A stretch of 10,575 bases of DNA from a virus (taxonomy: Duplodnaviria; Heunggongvirae; Uroviricota; Caudoviricetes). The stretch is from IMG/VR virus record IMGVR_UViG_2690315994_000024; one strand, given 5' to 3'. Position numbers and translations under genes: made by a program. Positions 1 through 10,575 of the stretch are shown one piece after another; position 1 is the stretch's first letter, and every line of letters starts with the position of its first letter. Under the pieces are notes generated by a model, which worked only from the letters and a program-made list of their open reading frames with translations, made no database searches and was not told the origin of the DNA.

Positions 1-987
1 AAAGTCACCTTTACGATCGACTGGTTCAACATCAGCAGCGCGTCCCGGGTAGGGACTATCAAAATTTATAACCTCTCGGCAGATACTGTGAACCGAATTA
101 CCGGGCAGGAGTTTTCGAAAGTGCGTCTGATTGCGGGTTACGACGGTATCGCGCCGGAAGTGTCGGCAAGCGACGTCGGGACAGTGCGGGAAGTTGACGC
201 GGCGGACGTGGGCCAGAGTGATGGTCGCAACTACGGACTGATTTTCAGCGGTGAAATTCGCTACTCGGTTACAGGAAAAGACAGTCCGGTTGATTCCTAC
301 GTCCTGATTCAGGCAGCAGATACTGATCTGGCTTTTGCCACCAGTATAACCTCACAGACGCTGGCTGCCGGTTACACGGTCGCTGATGTAAACCGTGCGC
401 TGATGAAAGACTTCGAAGCCAAAGGCGCGACCGAAGGCCTGACGCCTGAAATGCCTGCTACTGTATTCCCCCGGGGGCGGGTACTCTTTGGCATGACGCG
501 GCATCTAATGGATAACGTAGCCGGGCAATGTGGCGCAACATGGCAATTCGTGGATGGTCAGCGCCAGATGGTGGCGAATAACGAATATGTTCATGAAGCG
601 ATTGTGCTCAACAGCGCTACCGGGCTTATTGGCATGCCGCAGCAGACTATCGGTAACGGCGTAAACGTCCGCGCGCTTATTAATCCGAACATCCGGGTTA
701 ACGGACTTATTCAGCTGGATCAGGCTTCCGTGTATCGTACCGCCTTGTCGAACAACGATATTGCGATGGCTGGTGGTCAGATCACCGACCAGAACACGGA
801 TGGAAATATCACGCTAAGCGGCACCACATCGCAGCCTGCCAGCATCGCAACGGATGGCGTTTATATTGTGCGCGGGATTATGTACACTGGCGACACAAGG
901 GGCCAGGCGTGGTACATGGATATGATGTGCGAAGCGCGCGGTGCGCAGGATATGCCATCCAGCACTGCTTTGCAGAGAGGATTATAG
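1..987 (+). CDS. Phage tail/baseplate structural protein, 5'-truncated by the window edge (hub-like by position upstream of the spike gene)
   Basis: Frame 1 is open from nt 1 with no stop until TAG 985-987, so the gene starts upstream of the window (the track's GTG at 88 is internal). It heads a chain of tightly coupled tail genes. Product is assigned from synteny only; I recognise no motif. Confidence 0.5.
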   Translation, partial: KVTFTIDWFNISSASRVGTIKIYNLSADTVNRITGQEFSKVRLIAGYDGIAPEVSASDVGTVREVDAADVGQSDGRNYGLIFSGEIRYSVTGKDSPVDSYVLIQAADTDLAFATSITSQTLAAGYTVADVNRALMKDFEAKGATEGLTPEMPATVFPRGRVLFGMTRHLMDNVAGQCGATWQFVDGQRQMVANNEYVHEAIVLNSATGLIGMPQQTIGNGVNVRALINPNIRVNGLIQLDQASVYRTALSNNDIAMAGGQITDQNTDGNITLSGTTSQPASIATDGVYIVRGIMYTGDTRGQAWYMDMMCEARGAQDMPSSTALQRGL

Positions 988-989
988 AA

Positions 990-1337
990 ATGAAACGATG
1001 GATATTTTCATTGCTGGCGTTAGTGTCTGTTGGTGTAAGTGCAAACACCATAACGATGCAATGCGGCAACTTTCGTATGGATGCGATCCCTGACTCATTA
1101 TTTAAAATCAATGGCGAAACAGTAACATCCCAAAAAGTAAAAATGTTGGGTAAAGACGGTACAGGCATGCAGATCAAAATGGAGCTGATGCCTGCCAAAG
1201 ATGGCAACAATTATGGGTTCGAGTATATCCATCGACCGGGCACTAAAACGCGTTTCCTGAACGTCCAGTTGTTGCAGAACAGCATGGATGCTCCGAAAAT
1301 TATTGGCTCTTTCCCGTGTAAGAAAGTTGTTGGTTGA
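990..1337 (+). CDS. Small secreted protein of unknown function (predicted Sec signal peptide; two Cys in mature part)
   Basis: ATG 990 lies 9 nt after GAGAGG (974-980) and 2 nt after the upstream stop. N-terminus MKRWIFSLLALVSVGVSA has a basic n-region, hydrophobic core and VSA cleavage motif. The track's longer ORF from 909 overlaps the upstream gene and is unlikely to be the real start. Confidence 0.6.
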   Translation: MKRWIFSLLALVSVGVSANTITMQCGNFRMDAIPDSLFKINGETVTSQKVKMLGKDGTGMQIKMELMPAKDGNNYGFEYIHRPGTKTRFLNVQLLQNSMDAPKIIGSFPCKKVVG

Positions 1338-1344
1338 TTAAGAA

Positions 1345-1899
1345 ATGAGCAAGCGTTCGCCAATAGATACAACAGAAGAACAAAAGGCAATTGAGACTAT
1401 AGGCGCTGATTTTATTTCGTCATATTATAAAGATAGATATGAGGAAGCAAAATCAACATATCGTCGTCTTGAGGACAAAGTTAACTACCTTCTTGCTATT
1501 TTAGCTGTAGAAACCTCTGCTCTACTGGCTGTATTTGGGACTGTTGATTTCAAAAGTGGGCTAAAGAGTAATTGGTTTTTAACATTATCTATACTTTGTG
1601 CATATCTGTGCTTTGTTTGTATTGTTATGTGCTTTTTTTTCCTATGGCGTACTTGGGGACTGAAAGATATACCAAAAATGCCTATTCATAAGCGAAAAGA
1701 AGAGCATGATTTTTTACTTTACGGTGATAAAATTAAAACGCTTAGATACCATATGTTTCAGTATGGTAAAGCTGTTGAATTGATCGAAAGTCTTCATAAA
1801 GAAAAGGCAGTTTATGCTCGTTATCTTTTTGAAGGAATTGCGTTATCTTTCGGTTTTTTCATATTATCGGTTACTTTTCTTTTGATAAATAAGGCATAG
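1345..1899 (+). CDS. Predicted integral membrane protein (about 3 hydrophobic helices), unknown function; AT-rich cargo gene
   Basis: ATG 1345 follows the stop of the previous gene (TGA 1335-1337). Hydrophobic stretches LLAILAVETSALLAVFG, WFLTLSILCAYLCFVCIVMCFFFLW and IALSFGFFILSVTFLLI. Composition is visibly more AT-rich than the flanking tail genes. Confidence 0.6.
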   Translation: MSKRSPIDTTEEQKAIETIGADFISSYYKDRYEEAKSTYRRLEDKVNYLLAILAVETSALLAVFGTVDFKSGLKSNWFLTLSILCAYLCFVCIVMCFFFLWRTWGLKDIPKMPIHKRKEEHDFLLYGDKIKTLRYHMFQYGKAVELIESLHKEKAVYARYLFEGIALSFGFFILSVTFLLINKA

Positions 1900-1902
1900 T
1901 TG

Positions 1903-2073
1903 ATGACAACATCAAATAATGACAACTCACAGCAAAGTAAGCCAACGCAAGCAGAGCAATCCATGGCTGATTATGAAAGCAGTATAATGCTTGAAGTACC
2001 TTTTGATGGATTGGATTACATGACAGAAAGCGTTAAAGAACCTGAGTTGGACAATTTTAAACAGAAAAAATAA
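1903..2073 (+). CDS. Hypothetical small acidic protein (56 aa)
   Basis: ATG 1903 sits 4 nt after the stop of the membrane-protein gene and runs to TAA 2071-2073 (MTTSNNDNSQQSKPTQAEQSMADYESSIMLEVPFDGLDYMTESVKEPELDNFKQKK). It is followed directly by a terminator. Short ORF absent from the track, so low confidence. Confidence 0.3.
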   Translation: MTTSNNDNSQQSKPTQAEQSMADYESSIMLEVPFDGLDYMTESVKEPELDNFKQKK

Positions 2074-2092
2074 ACTTAGAGTTGTTCCTGTA

Positions 2093-2120
2093 GACCCGCC
2101 ACTTGGCGGGTTTTTTGTTT
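2093..2120 (+). terminator. Rho-independent terminator (GC stem CCCGCC/GGCGGG, loop ACTT, then TTTTTTGTTTT)
   Basis: Perfect 6-bp GC stem at 2095-2100 / 2105-2110 with a 4-nt loop, followed by a T-run at 2111-2120. It lies between the cargo ORFs and the spike gene. Confidence 0.65.
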
Positions 2121-2135
2121 TCAGGAGTTTATCAA

Positions 2136-2888
2136 ATGGCCATATCAGACCAGACTCGTAGCGGTGACCTTGCCGAAACATTCAAGTCCGAGCGGGAAAC
2201 AACAAAGAACCAGATCCGCGTCGCCTTGCCTGGCATTATTCAGTCATTCGATCCTGACGCGGTGACGGCGGTTGTGCAGCCAGCTATCCGTTCGGTTGAA
2301 AAGGATAACTACGGTAACCGCATTACCAAAAATTACCCATTGCTGGTGGATGTGCCAGTGGTATTCCCGCGCGGCGGAGGCTGTACGTTGACTTTTCCGG
2401 TAAAAGCCGGGGATGAGTGTCTTGTCGTTTTTGCCGATCGTTGTATTGATTTCTGGTGGCAGAACGGCGGGATACAGGAGCCTGTTGATGACAGAATGCA
2501 TGATTTATCGGATGCGTTTTGTATTGTCGGTCCCCAGTCGCAGGCGAGGAAGATTAGCGGTATTAATACCAGTGCCACACAGTTGCGTAGTGACGACGGC
2601 AGCACCTATTTTGAGCTTAATCCTGATACCAGGAAAATTAAAATTGTCGCTCCGGGTGGTCTTGATGTGGTTGCCCCTCTGGCTGATTTTTCTGAGAAAG
2701 TAACCATTCATGGCCTGTTAACCTGGATGGGTGGCATGGTGGGGTCTGTGGTTTCTGGTGTGGCTTCAAAAATCACTGGTGCTGTTGAGTTTTTGGGTAG
2801 CGTGAAGGCTAACGGCAAGCCAATCGATGATACGCACACTCATGGTGGTGTTCAGCGCGGTGGAAGCAATACCGACGGAGTAAACTGA
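2136..2888 (+). CDS. Baseplate spike / baseplate assembly protein V-like (P2 gpV / Mu gp45 family)
   Basis: ATG 2136 is preceded by AGGAG (2123-2127). The track's start at 2103 is TTG inside the terminator hairpin. C-terminal THTHGG...GGSNTDG resembles the His-rich apex motif I recall from P2 gpV. Position immediately upstream of W/J/I-like genes fits. Confidence 0.8.
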   Translation: MAISDQTRSGDLAETFKSERETTKNQIRVALPGIIQSFDPDAVTAVVQPAIRSVEKDNYGNRITKNYPLLVDVPVVFPRGGGCTLTFPVKAGDECLVVFADRCIDFWWQNGGIQEPVDDRMHDLSDAFCIVGPQSQARKISGINTSATQLRSDDGSTYFELNPDTRKIKIVAPGGLDVVAPLADFSEKVTIHGLLTWMGGMVGSVVSGVASKITGAVEFLGSVKANGKPIDDTHTHGGVQRGGSNTDGVN

Positions 2889-3241
2889 TGCGATACAGAC
2901 GTGAAGACGCCGATGGCGATTACACCTTTGGCAGCGGTGATGACACCTGGCTGATTAACTCACCGGAGGCCGTGGCGCAGGCGGTAAAAACGCGATTCGA
3001 ATTGTGGTATGGCCAATGGTTTCTCGACACCACCGAGGGGACTCCGTGGATCCAGTCCGTACTCGGTAAGCAGAAGCCGGAAACCTACAACCTGGCGATC
3101 CGTAAGCGCATCCTCGAAACGCAGGGCGTTAAATCAATCCTCTCTTTCAATACGACGGTGGATACCACGACCCGACGTGTCATGTTTTCCGCTGAAATCG
3201 ACACTCTTTATGGAATAACGACTGTTACATCGGAGGCGTAA
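2888..3241 (+). CDS. Small baseplate protein, gpW / Mu gp46-like by position
   Basis: Start overlaps the upstream stop (TGATG at 2886-2890). 117 aa, sitting between the V-like and J-like genes as in P2 (V-W-J-I-H-G). Assignment is by size and synteny only. Confidence 0.55.
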   Translation: MRYRREDADGDYTFGSGDDTWLINSPEAVAQAVKTRFELWYGQWFLDTTEGTPWIQSVLGKQKPETYNLAIRKRILETQGVKSILSFNTTVDTTTRRVMFSAEIDTLYGITTVTSEA

Positions 3242-4440
3242 TGGCTCTGAACCTTGATTCTCTCGGTTTATCTGCAAAGGTAACCGCGGAGGGGATCAGT
3301 GCGCCTGATTATCAGACGATACTCAGCACCCTGATTAGCTATTTTCAGCAGATTTATGGCAGTGATGCCTACCTCGAACCGGACAGCAAAGACGGCCAGA
3401 TGGTGGCTCTGATGGCGCTGGCGATTCATGATGCCAATAATATGGCGATAACTGTTTACAACTGTTTTTCACCGGCAACCGGCTATGGGGTTGCACTGAC
3501 CAGTAACGTGAAAATAAATGGTATTTCACGTAAAGGCGCGACGAACTCTACGGTTGATTTGCTTCTTACAGGAACTGCCGGAACAACCATCATTAATGGC
3601 AGCGTGAAAGACAGTAATAATGTGATATGGCGTTTGCCTGCTTCAGTGGTGGTCGGCGTGGATGGTACAGTGATGGTGACCGCAATATGTTCCGTCAGTG
3701 GTGCAGTGGCGGCGCTGGCTGGAACTATCACTGAAATTAATACACCAACCCGTGGCTGGGTTTCGGTAACCAATCCTGCTGCAGCCACTGTGGGCACTCC
3801 GGCAGAAACTGATGCGGAGTTACGTATCCGTCAGTCGCAAAGTGTTGCGTTGCCATCAATAACCCCATTTGAAGCACTGGATGGTGCTGTTTCTAATGTT
3901 GCCGGTGTAACCCGCCACAAACTCTATGAAAACGATACTGGTTCGGAGGACGGTAACGGGTTACCGCCACACTCTGTTGCTGTAATTGTGGATGGCGGTG
4001 ATGTGACGGATATTGCTCAGGCTATCAGAGGGAATAAAGGCCAGGGGACATCCACTCACGGTACAACATCCGTTACGGTTCCGGATAAATACGGCAATCC
4101 CCATGTAATCAAATTCTCGCGCTCTAGTGATGTGCCTGTTTATGCCCGGATTAAATTAAAAGTTTTTACGGGTTATACCTCACAGATAGGGCAGCAGATC
4201 CAGCAGGCTATTTCCGACTATATCAATAGTCTGATGATTGGTGATTCGGTCCTTTTAAGTCGCATTTACTCACCGGCGAATCTTGGCGTGGTGAGTGGCG
4301 GGAATGCACGCTATTACGATATTCAGGAACTGACGATTGGGAAATCCCCGGGGGCTTTGTCGTCATCAAACATTGATATCAGATACAACGAATCTGCGTC
4401 CTGTACACCGGAAAATATCGTTATAACGGTGGAGTCATGA
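3241..4440 (+). CDS. Baseplate J-like protein (P2 gpJ / Mu gp47 family)
   Basis: Start overlaps the upstream stop (TAATG at 3239-3243) with GGAGG at 3233-3237. 399 aa in the expected position between W-like and I-like genes. Confidence 0.75.
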   Translation: MALNLDSLGLSAKVTAEGISAPDYQTILSTLISYFQQIYGSDAYLEPDSKDGQMVALMALAIHDANNMAITVYNCFSPATGYGVALTSNVKINGISRKGATNSTVDLLLTGTAGTTIINGSVKDSNNVIWRLPASVVVGVDGTVMVTAICSVSGAVAALAGTITEINTPTRGWVSVTNPAAATVGTPAETDAELRIRQSQSVALPSITPFEALDGAVSNVAGVTRHKLYENDTGSEDGNGLPPHSVAVIVDGGDVTDIAQAIRGNKGQGTSTHGTTSVTVPDKYGNPHVIKFSRSSDVPVYARIKLKVFTGYTSQIGQQIQQAISDYINSLMIGDSVLLSRIYSPANLGVVSGGNARYYDIQELTIGKSPGALSSSNIDIRYNESASCTPENIVITVES

Positions 4441-5117
4441 GCAAATATACCGAACTAATCACGAACTACCACGCCACCAAACCTAAATTTCTTGCACATG
4501 TTGATCTGATGACCCGGCCGCTTATTGATGTTGCGGCGGCCACCAGAGGGCTGATTACTGCATTTGATATTGACTCTGCGGTTGGTGTGCAACTTGACAT
4601 TCTGGGATTGTGGATCGGACGTAGCCGTGTTGTCAGCCAGCCTATCTCAGGTGTCTATTTCAGCTGGGATACCGACGGGCTTGGATATGATCAGGGTGTA
4701 TGGCAGGGGCCATACGATCCTGATTCCGGATACATGTACCTCAGCGATGAAACTTATCGTGTCATCCTTAAAGCGAAGATTGCGATTAATAACTGGGACG
4801 GACGGAATGATTCGCTTCCAGCAATTCTTGACACTGCAACAGCAGGATCCGGGCTGCGAATGCAGATAGTCGATAACCAGGACATGACGATATCGGTCTG
4901 GGTCTTTCCTGATACTGATATTTCAGATGTATCGCGTGAGTTAATTGCGGCAATTAAACAGGGGTATCTAACAGTAAAAGCCGCCGGGGTATGGGCGGGG
5001 GGTATTGAAACACCTTCGGTGGAAACTCCATCGGAAGGCTCTAAATTTTTTGGTTTTGATATGGATAACGAATTCATCAGTGGTTTTGATGTAGGGGCAT
5101 GGGGAGTATTACTCTGA
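4437..5117 (+). CDS. Tail protein I-like (P2 gpI / Mu gp48 / e14 YmfQ-type, DUF2313-like)
   Basis: ATGA overlap with the upstream gene at 4437-4440. 226 aa, immediately upstream of the tail-fibre gene as in P2/Mu/e14. Confidence 0.65.
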
Positions 5118-5962
5118 TGGCGAAAAATGACTTTAAAGCGTTTGCAACTGATCGAAATGCCAATGTTATGTCGCAGGAGGAATGGGAAGCGTTGCCTGCG
5201 CTTATATCCGGATTTACAGCAGGGAAAGCATCCAGTGCGCAAGTCAATAAGGTTATTCGGCAGGCCAGCTTTATTGCTGCAGCTCTGGCCCAGTTTGTAA
5301 GTGATAAAACGCAACGGGATGTGCTTGATAATGGTGATCTGCCCGGTTTTGTTGAATTGCTGGGATCGGGGTTTGCTGTTGAATACCTGAGCCGCAAGAA
5401 TCCGTTTGGTGATATCAAATCGGATGGCACGGTGAAAACGGCTCTCGAAAACCTTGGTTTGGGAGAAGGTTCGGCATTACCCGTTGGGGTGCCTGTTCCG
5501 TGGCCTTCAGCCACTCCGCCAACAGGCTGGCTGAAATGCAATGGTGCGGCTTTTTCTGCTGAAGAATACCCGGAACTGGCAAAGGCTTACCCGACTAATA
5601 AATTGCCTGATTTACGCGGTGAATTTATTCGTGGCTGGGATGACGGTCGCGGGATTGATTCTGGTCGTACTTTGCTTAATTGGCAGCCACACACAATTTT
5701 GGACCATGCACACTATATGGAATTATGGACAGGGGACGGACTCGCCGCAGGAAGTGCACGGGAAGGAGTAAATCCAGGAATACTGGCTACATACGGTGAC
5801 GGGGGAATAGTTAAAACAGACGAACCCGGTCTTAGGGTGCCTTCCTCACTACGAGCTATTAGCTCCCGTAGTGTAAAACGTTTTGGTGAAATTAGTGGAA
5901 AGGTAGGTACAGAAACTCGTCCTCGTAACATCGCTTTTAATTATATTGTGAGGGCCGCATGA
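5117..5962 (+). CDS. Tail fibre protein: constant N-terminal part (Sc) fused at crossover site A to variable C-terminal domain Sv1
   Basis: ATG 5117 overlaps the upstream stop (TGATG) with GGGGAG 10 nt upstream, and is preferred over the track's ATG 5099. C-terminal part has a tail-collar-like motif ([21 protein letters not shown]...[17 protein letters not shown]). Crossover site lies in-frame at codons LGLGE. Confidence 0.85.
5442..5467 (+). other. Invertase crossover site A (hix/gix-like, 12-2-12): CTCTCGAAAACC TT GGTTTGGGAGAA
   Basis: Two imperfectly inverted 12-bp half-sites flank a 2-bp TT core. It resembles hixL (TTCTTGAAAACC AA GGTTTTTGATAA) as I recall it. It sits exactly at the Sc/Sv boundary of the tail-fibre gene, where sequence identity with the inverted Sv1 copy begins. 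Confidence 0.75.
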
Positions 5963-6052
5963 TGAATAAAGTTATCTTAAATAACGAACTCATTGCCATA
6001 AAAGCGGGAGACATTATCATTTATAATTATGATGGTGAAACGCGGGAATATA
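5454..6052 (+). repeat. Inverted repeat P, left copy (Sv1 variable domain plus first 31 codons of tfa1); reverse complement of 8303-8901
   Basis: Translations are identical in several frames on both strands (e.g. track ORFs 5541-5771 and 8584-8814; 5713-5931 and 8424-8642). Nucleotides were spot-checked at 5941-5970 against 8381-8410. Coordinates sum to 14355. Confidence 0.85.
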
Positions 6053-6066
6053 GACTCAATAATTAA
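5959..6066 (+). pseudogene. Truncated tail fibre assembly gene tfa1' (first 31 codons intact, then 4 foreign codons and stop)
   Basis: ATGA overlap with the tail-fibre stop at 5959-5962. [31 protein letters not shown] is identical to the N-terminus of the full-length 201-aa tfa1 on the minus strand (7791-8396), then diverges at 6052/6053 into RLNN-stop. Confidence 0.7.
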
Positions 6067-6343
6067 CATATACACATATTCACGCTCATTAATACAATCA
6101 TTTAAAGGAAACAACAAACTCATTGAGGATTATGAAAAAATCCTTATTGGCATGGCAGACAATAACAAAGATAAAACCATGTATAAGAGATTACATGATG
6201 CAAAAATAAATGTAATGGTAGATTATGCTCAAGGGATAAAAAATATTGATGCAGAGCTAAGAGATGCAGTCAATAAGGGATTCGACATTATCGACCAAGA
6301 AGTAAAGTCACTACAAATGAAATTAAACAAATTAGCTTCATAG
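6053..6343 (+). pseudogene. C-terminal fragment (about 97 codons) of the downstream cargo gene X, lacking its N-terminal half
   Basis: From DSIINIYTYSRSL... to the stop it is identical to the C-terminal part of the 215-aa ORF at 9603-10250 (-). The first 8 codons of the track ORF 6029-6343 are junction read-through. Confidence 0.7.
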
Positions 6344-6390
6344 AATGCTCCACTCCCTGTTCAATATTTTTACAAGCTTATCAGCCAACC

Positions 6391-6419
6391 GCAGCACGTT
6401 CTTGCATACGACGTGCTAC
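6391..6419. terminator. Hairpin between convergent X' and invertase copy 1 (possible bidirectional terminator)
   Basis: Stem AGCACGT (6393-6399) pairs with ACGTGCT (6411-6417) around an 11-nt loop. There is no clean T-run, so function is uncertain. Confidence 0.25.
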
Positions 6420-6423
6420 GGTT

Positions 6424-6978
6424 TCATTTATCTCCGACCGGAAACTTCTTATACAGTGTCGATATACCAACATCATAGATGATCGCCACCTTCTGGCGAG
6501 GAACGCCTGATGCAATTAATCGTCCGGCCTGCTCCCATTGTTCTGGTGTAAGTTTGGGGCGACGTCCACCAATTCGTCCCTGTGCGCGAGCTGCTTCCAG
6601 TCCAGCTTTTGTTCGTTCAACAATCAGTTCACGCTCCATTTCAGCCAGGGCACCCATCACATGAAAGAAAAAGCGCCCCATTGGGGTACTGGTATCAATT
6701 GAATCCGTCAGACTACGAAAGTTGATGCCTCGTTCGCGCAACTCCTCCACCAGCACGACAAGATGCCGCATACTGCGCCCCAGTCGGTCCAGTTTCCAGA
6801 CCACCAGCGTGTCACCTGCCGATAATGTCCTGAGCAGCTTTTTCAGTCCTGGTCTGTCGGACTTTGTACCGCTTATCTTGTCTTCAAAAATCAGCTCACA
6901 TCCTGCACAGTTCAGCGCATTACGTTGTAGATCGGTATTCTGGTCATTTGTTGATACACGTACATAGCCAATAAGCAT
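6424..6978 (-). CDS. pin: Site-specific DNA invertase, serine recombinase of the Hin/Gin/Pin/Cin family (copy 1)
   Basis: N-terminus MLIGYVRVSTNDQNTDLQRNAL contains the catalytic Ser in the YVRVSTNDQ motif; core VVWKLDRLGRS and SLTDSIDTSTPMGRFFFHVMGALAEMERELIVERT; C-terminal HTH (IYDVGISTLYKK). 184 aa from the conserved MLIGY start; the track's upstream ATG 7014 adds 12 non-conserved codons. Closest recalled relative is e14 Pin. Confidence 0.9.
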   Translation of the reverse strand: MLIGYVRVSTNDQNTDLQRNALNCAGCELIFEDKISGTKSDRPGLKKLLRTLSAGDTLVVWKLDRLGRSMRHLVVLVEELRERGINFRSLTDSIDTSTPMGRFFFHVMGALAEMERELIVERTKAGLEAARAQGRIGGRRPKLTPEQWEQAGRLIASGVPRQKVAIIYDVGISTLYKKFPVGDK

Positions 6979-7032
6979 GTTAAATTCCCCTGGTAAAAGC
7001 AGGAATGATGCCATTTGCTTGTTATTTCTTCA

Positions 7033-7058
7033 TTTTCATAAACGTTGGTTTGGGAGAA
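7033..7058 (+). other. Invertase crossover site B: TTTTCATAAACG TT GGTTTGGGAGAA
   Basis: Shares core and right half-site with site A and is the exact reverse complement of site C. It lies 20 bp upstream of the invertase copy 1 start, at the in-frame start of the Sv2 cassette. Confidence 0.75.
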
Positions 7059-7379
7059 GCGGCAAAACGGAATGTGGGAACTGGGGAAAATCAGATACCT
7101 GATATGTCATCATATGCATCAGGTTCAGGCTGGCGAAAAATGCCAGATGGTTCAATTGAACAGTGGGGACGAATTAGTTTTCCTAGTGAACACGGGCCTG
7201 TATCCGCCAATGTTTCATTCCCGATTCCATTTACACAGACACCGGGCATTGTAATTGTGTGCGATGGTGGTTTCGGGGGGGGGAATATGTGGGGGGCGAC
7301 CAACTGGAGCACTACCGGCTTCATAGCTCACTGCAATTATGGTCTTGAAGGTGGTGCGTTTTTCGCTAAGGGCTGGTAA
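7059..7379 (+). CDS. Silent tail-fibre variable cassette Sv2 (alternative C-terminal domain, about 107 codons), not fused to Sc in this isomer
   Basis: Reading frame continues in-frame from the GLGE codons of site B to TAA 7377-7379. Upstream codons [14 protein letters not shown] are antisense read-through of the invertase 5' region, not a real start. Contains a G9 tract at 7275-7283. Confidence 0.65.
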
Positions 7380-7819
7380 TGATGAAATATCTGTACGTAA
7401 ACAACCTGGCATATCCTTACGAACTTAAGTCTCTTTATGTTGAAAAAGGTGAGTGGCCTGAAGAAAAAGGTGTTGATATAGACGAAGTAATTTTCAGGGA
7501 ATATTTCTATGATACACCACCAGAAGGAAAATACAGATGTGTCGGAGAAGATGGACTGCCTGCATGGGTAGATATTCCTCCACCAACACGTGAAGAACAA
7601 ATTGCATCAGCCGAAACTAAAAAGCAGCAATTGATTAATCAGGCCAACGAATACATCAACAAACAATGGCCAGGTAAAGCATCAATTGGTCGTCTGAAAG
7701 GTGAGGAACTGGTGCAATATAATTTGTGGCTGGATTATCTGGACGCACTGGAGCTGATCGATACTTCCGGTGCGCCAGATATTGAATGGCCTACGCCTCC
7801 GGCAGTTCAGGCCAGATGA
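7379..7819 (+). CDS. Tail fibre assembly protein (Tfa) for the Sv2 cassette
   Basis: TAATG overlap with the Sv2 stop. C-terminus ...YNLWLDYLDALELIDTSGAPDIEWPTPP parallels the C-terminus of tfa1 (...LNAVLDYIDAVTATDTSTAPDVIWPELP). 3' end overlaps the convergent tfa1 by 29 bp, as in Mu U/U'. Confidence 0.75.
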   Translation: MMKYLYVNNLAYPYELKSLYVEKGEWPEEKGVDIDEVIFREYFYDTPPEGKYRCVGEDGLPAWVDIPPPTREEQIASAETKKQQLINQANEYINKQWPGKASIGRLKGEELVQYNLWLDYLDALELIDTSGAPDIEWPTPPAVQAR

Positions 7820-8396
7820 CATCCGGCGCTGTGCTGGTATCTGTTGCCGTCACCGCGTCAATGTAATCCAGCACAGCGTTAAGGCGGGTTGTTTCTGCCT
7901 GCGTCAGCTTCCGTCCGGCCTGTAATTTCAGTTGAATCAGACTGATGGAGGCCATTGCAGTATCAATCAGCGACTGGCGCTGTGCTTCTGCTGCATCTAC
8001 TGCTGCGCCGTGCTGTGCCTCGGTATCTGTCACCCATTTCTCACCATCCCATTTATCATATGGCGTTAATGGGGCGATAGTGGTTGTATTTTCAGGGTAA
8101 TCACCCGGAACTGTGATTTCTTTGGTATCTCCCGTTTCGGTACTATAGACAACTTCACCGCGATGGTCTGGCACATATTCCCATGAATTTAAATCTACAG
8201 AGCGACAGATTGCATAACCAGCTTTATGTGTACCTGGTGCATCCAAACAGGAACATGCCGGTATACCGACGCCGACAGCGAGATATTCAGTTGATGTAGA
8301 AATATATTCCCGCGTTTCACCATCATAATTATAAATGATAATGTCTCCCGCTTTTATGGCAATGAGTTCGTTATTTAAGATAACTTTATTCATCAT
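7791..8396 (-). CDS. Tail fibre assembly protein Tfa1, full length (201 aa), partner of Sv1
   Basis: Start overlaps the Sv1 stop on the minus strand. Its first 31 codons are duplicated in tfa1' at 5959-6051. Confidence 0.8.
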   Translation of the reverse strand: MMNKVILNNELIAIKAGDIIIYNYDGETREYISTSTEYLAVGVGIPACSCLDAPGTHKAGYAICRSVDLNSWEYVPDHRGEVVYSTETGDTKEITVPGDYPENTTTIAPLTPYDKWDGEKWVTDTEAQHGAAVDAAEAQRQSLIDTAMASISLIQLKLQAGRKLTQAETTRLNAVLDYIDAVTATDTSTAPDVIWPELPEA

Positions 8397-8901
8397 GCGG
8401 CCCTCACAATATAATTAAAAGCGATGTTACGAGGACGAGTTTCTGTACCTACCTTTCCACTAATTTCACCAAAACGTTTTACACTACGGGAGCTAATAGC
8501 TCGTAGTGAGGAAGGCACCCTAAGACCGGGTTCGTCTGTTTTAACTATTCCCCCGTCACCGTATGTAGCCAGTATTCCTGGATTTACTCCTTCCCGTGCA
8601 CTTCCTGCGGCGAGTCCGTCCCCTGTCCATAATTCCATATAGTGTGCATGGTCCAAAATTGTGTGTGGCTGCCAATTAAGCAAAGTACGACCAGAATCAA
8701 TCCCGCGACCGTCATCCCAGCCACGAATAAATTCACCGCGTAAATCAGGCAATTTATTAGTCGGGTAAGCCTTTGCCAGTTCCGGGTATTCTTCAGCAGA
8801 AAAAGCCGCACCATTGCATTTCAGCCAGCCTGTTGGCGGAGTGGCTGAAGGCCACGGAACAGGCACCCCAACGGGTAATGCCGAACCTTCTCCCAAACCA
8901 A
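8303..8901 (-). repeat. Inverted repeat P, right copy
   Basis: Reverse complement of 5454-6052; see left copy. Confidence 0.85.
8393..8887 (-). CDS. Silent tail-fibre variable cassette Sv1 (second, inverted copy of the domain currently fused to Sc)
   Basis: From [25 protein letters not shown]... to the stop it is identical to the C-terminal part of the expressed tail fibre. The track's N-terminal [14 protein letters not shown] is read-through into the invertase-proximal repeat. Confidence 0.75.
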   Translation of the reverse strand, partial: GSALPVGVPVPWPSATPPTGWLKCNGAAFSAEEYPELAKAYPTNKLPDLRGEFIRGWDDGRGIDSGRTLLNWQPHTILDHAHYMELWTGDGLAAGSAREGVNPGILATYGDGGIVKTDEPGLRVPSSLRAISSRSVKRFGEISGKVGTETRPRNIAFNYIVRAA

Positions 8902-8913
8902 CGTTTATGAAAA
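8888..8913 (-). other. Invertase crossover site C (reverse complement of site B): + strand TTCTCCCAAACC AA CGTTTATGAAAA
   Basis: Lies between the Sv1 cassette and invertase copy 2. Both repeat families (P and Q) meet and overlap precisely at this site. Confidence 0.75.
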
Positions 8914-8967
8914 TGAAGAAATAACAAGCAAATGGCATCATTCCTGCTTTTACCAGGGGAATTTAAC

Positions 8968-9522
8968 ATGCTTATTGGCTATGTACGTGTATCAACAAAT
9001 GACCAGAATACCGATCTACAACGTAATGCGCTGAACTGTGCAGGATGTGAGCTGATTTTTGAAGACAAGATAAGCGGTACAAAGTCCGACAGACCAGGAC
9101 TGAAAAAGCTGCTCAGGACATTATCGGCAGGTGACACGCTGGTGGTCTGGAAACTGGACCGACTGGGGCGCAGTATGCGGCATCTTGTCGTGCTGGTGGA
9201 GGAGTTGCGCGAACGAGGCATCAACTTTCGTAGTCTGACGGATTCAATTGATACCAGTACCCCAATGGGGCGCTTTTTCTTTCATGTGATGGGTGCCCTG
9301 GCTGAAATGGAGCGTGAACTGATTGTTGAACGAACAAAAGCTGGACTGGAAGCAGCTCGCGCACAGGGACGAATTGGTGGACGTCGCCCCAAACTTACAC
9401 CAGAACAATGGGAGCAGGCCGGACGATTAATTGCATCAGGCGTTCCTCGCCAGAAGGTGGCGATCATCTATGATGTTGGTATATCGACACTGTATAAGAA
9501 GTTTCCGGTCGGAGATAAATGA
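8968..9522 (+). CDS. pin: Site-specific DNA invertase, Hin/Gin/Pin/Cin family (copy 2, identical to copy 1)
   Basis: Same protein as 6424-6978. ATG 8968 is preceded by AGGGGA. This copy is in the canonical position, immediately outside the right crossover site. Confidence 0.9.
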   Translation: MLIGYVRVSTNDQNTDLQRNALNCAGCELIFEDKISGTKSDRPGLKKLLRTLSAGDTLVVWKLDRLGRSMRHLVVLVEELRERGINFRSLTDSIDTSTPMGRFFFHVMGALAEMERELIVERTKAGLEAARAQGRIGGRRPKLTPEQWEQAGRLIASGVPRQKVAIIYDVGISTLYKKFPVGDK

Positions 9523-9526
9523 AACC

Positions 9527-9555
9527 GTAGCACGTCGTATGCAAGAACGTGCTGC
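9527..9555. terminator. Hairpin between convergent invertase copy 2 and X (mirror of 6391-6419)
   Basis: Stem AGCACGT (9529-9535) pairs with ACGTGCT (9547-9553) around an 11-nt loop, starting 5 nt after the invertase stop. No clean T-run. Confidence 0.25.
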
Positions 9556-9602
9556 GGTTGGCTGATAAGCTTGTAAAAATATTGAACAGGGAGTGGAGCA
9601 TT

Positions 9603-10250
9603 CTATGAAGCTAATTTGTTTAATTTCATTTGTAGTGACTTTACTTCTTGGTCGATAATGTCGAATCCCTTATTGACTGCATCTCTTAGCTCTGCATCAA
9701 TATTTTTTATCCCTTGAGCATAATCTACCATTACATTTATTTTTGCATCATGTAATCTCTTATACATGGTTTTATCTTTGTTATTGTCTGCCATGCCAAT
9801 AAGGATTTTTTCATAATCCTCAATGAGTTTGTTGTTTCCTTTAAATGATTGTATTAATGAGCGTGAATATGTGTATATGTTAATTATTGAGTCTCTAGCA
9901 GAATCATTTAGTTTTGCAATGACATTCGCATTTTGCTCATAGAATGTGAAATTATCATCCCCTACAGGGAATGTGAGAATCAACATTTGTCCCGGTTTTA
10001 TATTATCAATGTGTGTTTTCATCCTTTTATTATATAAATTGATTAGGGTGAAAACTTCTCCCTTAACTCCTTTTAATACTGAAAGTTGTAATTCAAGGGA
10101 TTCTCTTTCTGTCTCTACTTTAGACAGCTTAGCTTGTTGGGTCACTCCTTTTAGGGTAAACCATCCGCCAATAAGAGTACCAACTAGAGCTGTGAGGGAG
10201 GAGGATAACCATCCAGGTATGCTATTTAAAAGATTACTAAATTCACTCAT
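9603..10250 (-). CDS. Cargo protein X: N-terminal transmembrane helix followed by a charged, probably coiled-coil region; unknown function
   Basis: 215-aa ORF in AT-rich DNA. N-terminus IPGWLSSSLTALVGTLIGGWFTL is hydrophobic; the rest is K/E/D/L-rich. Convergent with the invertase. Confidence 0.6.
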   Translation of the reverse strand: MSEFSNLLNSIPGWLSSSLTALVGTLIGGWFTLKGVTQQAKLSKVETERESLELQLSVLKGVKGEVFTLINLYNKRMKTHIDNIKPGQMLILTFPVGDDNFTFYEQNANVIAKLNDSARDSIINIYTYSRSLIQSFKGNNKLIEDYEKILIGMADNNKDKTMYKRLHDAKINVMVDYAQGIKNIDAELRDAVNKGFDIIDQEVKSLQMKLNKLAS

Positions 10251-10308
10251 TATAAGTACTCGCTAATATTGAACGATATATATATCAAATTATTATAAAA
10301 CTCGTCAG

Positions 10309-10575
10309 CTACTGGAGAAGGCTACCTGAACTTCGATCTATTCCTGCATCCATATAGTTGATGGTCTTCTGGAGCTCTTCGATTAGGGCAACAGCTTTTG
10401 CTCGAGAAATGCATATTAGTTGATCCGGAAATTCTTGTAAGGGCCAGTTTGGTATACAGGCCATGTTATCAGTGAAGGATGCAGACAAGTAAACTTCATT
10501 GGTAACCAGAGAATAGCTTACCTCAAAATTGGTGAGTTCCAGCAAACTGCTAACGTTTGACTCTTTTCTGCGCAT
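10309..10575 (-). CDS. Hypothetical protein upstream of X in the same orientation, possibly 5'-truncated by the window edge
   Basis: The ORF reaches the last base of the window (ATG is the final codon on the minus strand), so the true start may lie outside. AT-rich; no recognisable motif. Confidence 0.4.
   Translation of the reverse strand: MRRKESNVSSLLELTNFEVSYSLVTNEVYLSASFTDNMACIPNWPLQEFPDQLICISRAKAVALIEELQKTINYMDAGIDRSSGSLLQ

Follow-up and report, generated by a model that had tools for sequence, protein, structure and literature searches.

Our results support an interpretation whereby the duplicated invertase gene in this prophage locus is very probably an artefact of assembly or scaffolding and not a real feature of the genome. 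The underlying locus is a canonical single-invertase tail-fibre switch of the Gin/Pin type, with the order Sc, site, [SvB, tfaB, tfaA', SvA'], site', invertase and X. The stretch of DNA analysed here (the window; 10,575 nt) corresponds to positions 1-10575 of contig CYBJ01000009.1 (NCBI GCA_001284825.1) and differs from the record at a single position: nucleotide 6052, an "N" in the record, reads "A" in the window. This N is the sole N among the 13,962 nt of the contig, and it falls on the sole non-parental joint that a duplication requires, i.e. that between a tfa 5' fragment and an X 3' fragment (…GGGAATAT[N]GACTCAAT…).

The tail-fibre gene (5117-5962, + strand; annotated as 281 aa in the source record; Pfam Collar, 2.5e-15) joins the constant region Sc, which extends to 5453, to the variable C-terminus SvA, forming the "A-on" junction; Sc is short, with ~112 of the 281 fibre codons preceding the crossover site. 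Crossover site 1 (5442-5467, + strand; 26 bp, CTCTCGAAAACC-TT-GGTTTGGGAGAA) has the half-site AAACC on its Sc side, while site 3 (8888-8913, − strand), which is of the same 26-bp type, has the half-site AAACG on its invertase side; we judge both to be real, and site 3 bounds the canonical switch on the right. The base next to the core thus distinguishes Sc (AAACC) from both invertase copies (AAACG). The crossover sites resemble Mu gix and match the 26-bp invertase consensus tabulated previously (PMC4134206). Between them lies the invertible cassette (7060-8886) with SvB (to 7379, +), tfa-B (7379-7819, +), tfa-A (7791-8396, −) and SvA (8393-8886, −), which together give one Pfam match to Gp53-like_C and two to Caudo_TAP, the two Caudo_TAP genes being on opposite strands; SvA and SvB are the only alternative fibre ends present in the window.

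The invertase gene that we judge to be the genuine copy (8968-9522, + strand) encodes a Gin/Pin-type protein of 184 aa with Ser9 (MLIGYVRVSTNDQ; Pfam Resolvase, 1.6e-51; HTH_7, 4.4e-13), annotated as pinE in relatives, that aligns over residues 1-181 with the Gin structures 3UJ3 and 4M6F (E=1e-95). The 5' 300 nt of the gene align well with Mu gin and include one match to the Fis consensus, GTGCAGGATGTGAGC at 9038-9052, that is conserved at the homologous position in Mu and may belong to a candidate enhancer; the spacing of the Fis-motif matches, 37 nt in Mu, differs from the 48 bp of hin. Adjoining the invertase is gene X (9603-10250, − strand; 215 aa), which has no family match, whose exact protein appears in 5846 index blocks across the assembly collection and whose 3' 291 nt are repeated at 6053-6343. 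Searches of NCBIfam with the invertase, X, tfa and fibre proteins produced no family above cut-off. The prophage backbone is that of a ~42-kb myovirus, vB_EcoM-606R2/SEN34-like, inserted adjacent to yfhH, and the switch is located at one end of this prophage.

As written, the window contains two identical outward-facing invertase genes, at 6424-6978 (−) and 8968-9522 (+), each encoding a 184-aa protein with Resolvase and HTH_7 domains. These genes bracket the cassette, copy 1 lies inside a larger site-to-site unit, and there are three crossover sites, all of which a preliminary description made from the letters of the window had correctly read. That description also placed a ~1-kb perfect inverted repeat at 6053-7058 and 8888-9893, and this repeat is present with limits right within one or two bases. 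By base-by-base extension, 6052-7059 and 8887-9894 are exact reverse complements over 1008 nt (100% identity); without base 6052, the correspondence is between 6053-7059 and 8887-9893, and the arms returned by repeat search are 6049-7059 and 8887-9897. The match of these ~1-kb arms far exceeds chance expectation. A second perfect inverted repeat adjoins the first, pairing 5454-6051 with 8304-8901 (599 nt when taken as 5454-6052 and 8303-8901), and both repeats terminate at position 6052. The total redundant block (5454-7044) is therefore 1591 nt, compared with the ~1 kb first seen, and starts ~5.4 kb from the end of the contig, which itself begins inside a prophage gene. The repeat boundaries fall within two genes, at tfa codon 31 and X codon ~119, so that truncated fragments remain, of which one is out of frame. 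The annotation of CYBJ01000009.1 includes junction ORFs of 35 aa and 104 aa as genes, and exact-sequence look-ups of these ORFs and of the 287-aa fibre ORF found nothing on record, whereas the 281-aa version of the fibre, with a different start, matched the source contig.

To account for the window, we built one single-copy locus of 8984 nt in both the A-on and the B-on orientation. The A-on reconstruction contains 1-6051 and the reverse complement of 6053-7100 verbatim, the B-on reconstruction contains 7046-10575 verbatim, and every window base except 6052 has an exact counterpart in one orientation or the other. No window base needs a duplication. The reconstructions are collinear with the related loci L002 and L001, save for one cassette stretch too diverged to align. 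Consistently, window 1-6052 is collinear with L002, which is A-on, with the alignment stopping exactly at 6052, and window 8887-10575 matches L001 and L002 without a break, placing the invertase at 8968-9522 in its parental context. Of the four junction types possible, the assembly contains three; Sc|SvB is missing from the scaffold.

Support for a single-copy locus also comes from related genomes, a comparison that the preliminary description had proposed. All 13 related loci have one invertase match each, and in 80/80 complete genomes carrying it the X 3' stretch occurs once and runs uninterrupted across 9894; none of these genomes has a second partial copy of the X 3' end. Two crossover sites, with site 1 and its AAACC half beside Sc, occur in 12 of the 13 loci, the exception being L010, which is without any site. 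The mirror layout of the cassette is common to the same 12 loci (L001-L009 and L011-L013) with both orientations represented, and Sc::SvA and Sc::SvB fusions are each found, in different strains whose prophages are otherwise near-identical. Since both cassette orientations occur among strains, the switch does flip. None of 5426 complete E. coli genomes spans the tfa|X joint; in the genome, viral and metagenome contig collections it had no match, whether with A at 6052 or with any 0-4 bases at the N.

We suggest that both orientations of the cassette were present among the cells of the sequenced culture and that the assembler put both into one scaffold. In our model, piece A (1-6051) would exit Sc in the A-on orientation and end in redundant sequence consisting of SvA and the first 31 codons of tfa (5454-6051, + strand). 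Piece B (6053 onward) would open with the A-on right-hand junction in reverse (6053-7059, − strand), i.e. the X 3' fragment (6053-6343), invertase copy 1 (6424-6978) and site 2 (7033-7058, − strand), followed by SvB; it would then cross the cassette and leave in the B-on orientation through SvA', site', invertase and X. The two pieces would have been abutted with a one-base N as placeholder at 6052. We accordingly judge 6053-7059, read as a second invertase copy, to be artefactual. As for the software, reads may have been used to extend the two edges of a gap that failed to meet, as in GapFiller-type closure. SSPACE and GapFiller leave a single N between adjacent contigs that do not overlap. 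In the literature on sequencing and assembly method we found no paper citing CYBJ01. Gap closers extend both edges base by base and merge them only on overlap (GapFiller paper, PMC3446322, which describes growth from the edges and is silent on the way an unclosed gap is written).

In agreement with this model, a mixture of segment orientations results, according to Forde et al. 2014 (PMC4134206), in "artefactual duplications in phage regions". For E. coli EC958, prophage tail-fibre segments were inverted in ~50% of reads, which led to spurious contigs, and the same study explicitly predicts a duplication if both alleles enter one sequence (PMC4134206). The alternative alleles of EC958 share with our locus the organism, the locus class and the cause, an orientation-mixed culture; they differ in that they were separate PacBio contigs that were recognised and kept off the chromosome, whereas here both orientations apparently entered one deposited scaffold with a single-N seam. 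For e14, a 1:1 ratio of orientations has been observed in clonal cultures (PMC4272514). Some points, besides the exact fit of a real-duplication model described below, weigh against an artefact. The N at the joint removes support for a duplication yet gives no positive disproof of it, and the piece ends at 8303/4 and 9893/4 match no common boundary that would explain stalled extension: no common mosaic or paralogue boundary lies there, with 1387 of 1449 genomes continuing through 8303 and 80/80 through 9894.

The best surviving alternative, which we nevertheless regard as unlikely, is a real and recent event in which a 1591-bp head-to-tail tandem duplication of the tfaA 5' end, SvA, site, invertase and X 3' end was followed by two inversions. 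In the route proposed for it, which appears equally unlikely, illegitimate recombination would have produced the duplication while the locus was B-on, and the invertase would then have inverted at the central TT. The N at the joint makes this scenario a minor rival, because mixing of two orientations fits equally well. In simulation, a canonical locus with a duplication of 8303/4-9893/4 and two central-TT inversions regenerates all 10,575 bases; the exact fit is, however, equally given by mixing the two orientations of a single-copy locus. Similarly, the C/G half-site polymorphism is distributed as it should be after strand exchange at the core, but this pattern is also to be expected in the absence of a duplication. 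A real duplication would likewise stall extension at exactly 6051 and 6053, since both would be branch points. It would generate four isomers in the cycle W-S1-S3-S2, among which W (the window) alone is without direct repeats, so that RecA-mediated deletion could not remove the duplication from W. Multi-site systems are not implausible, given the real three-IR, four-variant tail-fibre shufflon known in an EPEC P2-like prophage (PMC4272514). Against these points, the defining joint is an N in the record, leaving no positive evidence for the duplication; no other locus among thousands of relatives has this joint, which is missing from all collections searched; and the scenario needs three rare or ordered events in place of one very common condition, a mixed-orientation culture. 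That such a duplication was in addition converted by its own invertase into inverted repeats, yielding a "locked" two-invertase, three-site, four-state switch, is likewise unlikely, although if true it would be a snapshot of how shufflons like Min could arise from two-site switches.

Two further explanations fare worse. Another kind of artefact, such as the inclusion near a contig end of a chimeric or hairpin long read (adapter missed) or of a chimeric product of amplification, is very unlikely: contig-end hairpin artefacts are a recognised problem (PMC4134206) and the window does open at contig position 1, within a prophage gene, but the arms of a foldback should meet at the fold and are here 1827 and 2250 nt apart, which led us to rule out a foldback or hairpin chimera; moreover, the arms are bounded precisely by invertase crossover cores, and the redundant block is distant from the contig end while the N points to a scaffold join. 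An old and stable two-invertase architecture, a true Gin/Pin variant in which gene conversion between the 1-kb inverted repeats maintains identical arms, is scarcely credible, as the perfect arm identity is all that favours it, while an established architecture should recur and was found in 0/80 complete genomes and 0/13 loci (with the joint in 0/5426 genomes), its ends lie inside tfa and X and leave truncated fragments unlike a selected design, and its joint is an N. Thus, among duplication, gene conversion and assembly artefact, the three explanations offered in the preliminary description, we favour the last and neither of the others.

With assembly of both orientations as our preferred explanation, the real locus matches Gin, Cin, Pin and Hin of the Din family (Mu G, P1 C and e14 P segments) in every structural point tested. 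The enzyme has 184 aa with Resolvase and HTH_7; the 26-bp sites are paired and inverted, with imperfectly palindromic 12-nt halves and a 2-bp core; the cassette is a mirror of two fibre C-termini, each with a Caudo_TAP chaperone, while the constant N-terminus lies outside; the single invertase sits just outside one site and is transcribed away from it; and the segment inverts. After collapsing the redundant 1591 nt, no substantive difference from these switches remains; the backbone, which is not that of Mu, P1 or e14, and the short Sc set the locus apart. The idea of a truly duplicated invertase that departs from the Gin/Cin/Pin pattern is not supported, given that the joint is an N, that two orientations explain the rest and that relatives lack it. 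The premise that known systems always have the invertase outside the segment was itself too strong, as Salmonella hin is located inside its invertible segment.

The three sites of the window as written, with four isomers, recall the three-site shufflons Min of p15B and the EPEC P2-like three-IR system (Goldberg et al. 2014, PMC4272514), and the count is as in EPEC. Real multi-site systems, however, have a single invertase, and every additional site is placed before a different fibre C-terminus. The third site of the window, at 7033-7058, precedes no new fibre end; it faces repeated copies of SvA and the invertase and is confined to redundant scaffold sequence. The locus thus lacks the three or more sites with distinct coding ends that characterise multiple-inversion systems.

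The biological weight of the finding is slight, as the locus is a Gin/Pin-type tail-fibre switch of the textbook kind, carried by a common prophage of E. coli. More generally, draft assemblies may hold both orientations of such a segment in series, leading to false gene duplications, extra sites and truncated chimeric ORFs. In the window, replacement of the N by A erased the only visible sign of the seam, and raw sequence should be scanned with its Ns retained or flagged. Finally, as a by-product, the three junction types imply flipping of the cassette in the sequenced culture: their coexistence without a duplication would mean that the culture was mixed, and a mixed culture would in turn mean that the invertase, or another acting in trans, was active, making it probable that the cassette switch is active in the sequenced strain.

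The duplicated invertase is very probably not a real feature of this phage, the second copy being best explained as an artefact of scaffolding a mixture of cassette orientations. The preliminary description, which claimed an invertase gene duplicated in an inverted repeat of ~1 kb around the cassette, was correct in its coordinates and geometry: the repeat arms match, and both genes (6424-6978, minus strand; 8968-9522, plus strand; each 184 aa with Resolvase and HTH_7 domains) read away from the cassette. By base-by-base extension, 6052-7059 and 8887-9894 form a perfect inverted repeat of 1008 nt (100% identity), and a second perfect inverted repeat of 599 nt (5454-6052 and 8303-8901) adjoins the first, giving a redundant block of 1591 nt with one crossover site as its left boundary and a second at its right end. 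The 26-bp crossover site occurs three times (sites 1 to 3 from left to right; cores at 5454-5455, 7045-7046, and 8900-8901), with AAACC as the half-site on the side of Sc, the constant fibre part, and AAACG as the half-site beside both invertase copies.

Upstream of the fibre gene lie the spike (2136-2888) and sheath-initiator-like (2888-3241) baseplate genes, a Baseplate_J gene (3241-4440), and a DUF2612 wedge gene (4437-5117). In the fibre gene (5117-5962), Sc is joined at site 1 to the Collar-domain C-terminus SvA. Positions 5962-7040 then hold the first 31 codons of the chaperone gene tfa-A, joined out of frame at 6052 to the 3′-terminal 291 nt of X, the invertase neighbour, followed by the inverted invertase and site 2. 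The cassette (7060-8886; 1827 nt) contains the alternative C-terminus SvB (to 7379, plus strand; Gp53-like_C), its chaperone gene tfa-B (7379-7819, plus strand), tfa-A (7791-8396, minus strand), and SvA (8393-8886, minus strand); to its right come site 3, the invertase, X (9603-10250, minus strand, without a family match), and an 88-aa ORF.

The joint between the tfa 5′ and X 3′ fragments is where the source record is informative. An exact search with the 281-aa fibre protein matched a single contig, and the window was identified as positions 1-10575 of this contig, CYBJ01000009.1 (GCA_001284825.1; 183,236 bp). The two differ only at 6052, where the record has N and the window A. This N, the only one within the 13,962 nt retrieved, lies at the sole joint foreign to the parental arrangement and at the end of both inverted repeats, and the canonical relative L002 aligns (98.6%, no gaps) only as far as this point. 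Because the N falls exactly on the non-parental joint, this joint was never sequenced; position 6052 is the seam between two scaffold pieces. Replacing the N by A removed the sole visible mark of the seam and also gave the joint what looks like 1 nt of microhomology. Two ORFs of 35 and 104 aa called across the seam in the record (window 5959-6066 and 6029-6343) are artefactual chimeric proteins, now in public protein sets. Our literature search found no paper citing the accession of the source assembly.

Collapsing the redundancy yields an 8984-nt single-copy locus, which we built with SvA (A-on) or SvB (B-on) joined to Sc. The A-on form includes window 1-6051 verbatim plus the reverse complement of 6053-7100, the B-on form includes 7046-10575 verbatim, and they are collinear with the related loci L002 (A-on) and L001 (B-on), respectively, except for one cassette stretch too diverged to align. 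The scaffold reads as the A-on left junction, the N, the A-on right junction backwards, the cassette, and the B-on right junction. Of the four possible junction types it holds three, Sc|SvB being the missing one; unless there is a duplication, cells of either orientation must have contributed reads. Such mixtures are normal for switches of this kind: in E. coli EC958, prophage tail-fibre segments lay in the alternative orientation in ~50% of reads (PMC4134206), and e14 had an orientation ratio of 1:1 in clonal K-12 cultures (PMC4272514). Gap closers lengthen each gap edge one base at a time and join the two only on overlap (PMC3446322); as a putative software route, extensions from edges in different orientations would diverge and never meet.

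The real locus is a canonical Gin/Pin-type switch. Its invertase carries Ser9 and can be aligned end to end with the sequences of Gin crystal structures (E=1e-95). Its sites have the 12-2-12 architecture and are similar to Mu gix and to the published consensus (PMC4134206). The cassette has the layout usual in such switches, with fibre C-termini and chaperones arranged as a mirror pair; a motif search did not locate the recombinational enhancer. In this invertase family, Fis is bound to an enhancer within the invertase gene, strands are exchanged at the 2-bp core, and inversion swaps the C-terminus and chaperone joined to Sc, changing host range.

Comparison with the same prophage in related genomes, the check proposed in the preliminary description, revealed neither a second invertase nor the joint: each of the 13 related loci has one invertase match. 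The joint occurs in 0 of 5426 complete E. coli genomes and is absent from genome, viral, and metagenome contig collections queried with A or any 0-4 bases at the seam. The X stretch spanning 9894 was found in 80 complete genomes, contiguous in all and exactly once per genome. Two crossover sites are present in 12/13 loci, the one beside Sc with AAACC and the one beside the invertase with AAACG, while none was detectable within 3 mismatches in L010, and the cassette is seen in both orientations among related loci. Among phage records, the closest (vB_EcoM-606R2 and relatives) likewise have one invertase, as does a P2-like prophage that shares the cassette module.

We consider a real recent duplication, head-to-tail over 8303/4-9893/4 and followed by two inversions, improbable. 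In simulation, the window minus 1591 nt (a canonical B-on locus) subjected to this duplication and two inversions at the central TT regenerates all 10,575 bases, and the window would be the only one of the four isomers in the resulting cycle without direct repeats. A true duplication would also stall read-based extension at the same two points, and the piece ends do not match mosaic boundaries that could otherwise account for the stops. However, it needs three ordered rare events, its joint is unique among thousands of loci, and no positive evidence for it is left. The mixed-orientation artefact needs a mixed culture, documented as routine, and a scaffolder, nothing more, and also predicts the N. 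An artefact of another kind is very unlikely, and an old conserved two-invertase architecture is the least credible of all.

The related loci showed further variation. L001 (10388-10941) and L004, L005, L012, and L013 (8729-9282) share one frameshifted invertase allele, identical in all five, of 554 nt and with a stop codon arising prematurely after ~117 codons. The cassette is B-on in L001, L004, and L013 and A-on in L005 and L012; either the cassette was flipped in trans by the invertase of another prophage or the flips are older than the frameshift. In L010 (8001-10240; GCA_964043225.1, 4.36-Mb contig), X and an intact invertase directly adjoin non-phage genes (hexapeptide transferase, DUF1488, aroE, yrdC-like, dprA, def, and fmt), and a truncation or rearrangement seems to have affected this prophage close to or at the crossover site. 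The SvA/tfa-A module (window 8154-8453) is 100% identical over 300 nt in L015 (6718-10382; E. coli MLI104K1, NZ_CP116923.1), a P2-like prophage with V/W/J/I/H order and sheath and tube after the invertase, so this module is exchanged between unrelated myovirus backbones. At the window start (1-987), the contig begins inside a gene with a weak E217_GP41 baseplate-hub match that is whole (354 aa) in relatives, so the assembly also broke upstream within the same prophage; the source genome may contain further repeats or variants of this phage. Between this baseplate-hub-like gene and the spike gene, 990-2073 is a variable slot with ORFs of 115, 184, and 56 aa, without Pfam match in the source contig gene table, and with other genes in L003, L006-L009, and L011, a pattern resembling an insertion point for morons or accessory genes within the baseplate module.

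As biology, this feature is of low interest; its value is cautionary, both for invertible segments in draft assemblies and for the practice of replacing an N by a base ahead of sequence inspection.
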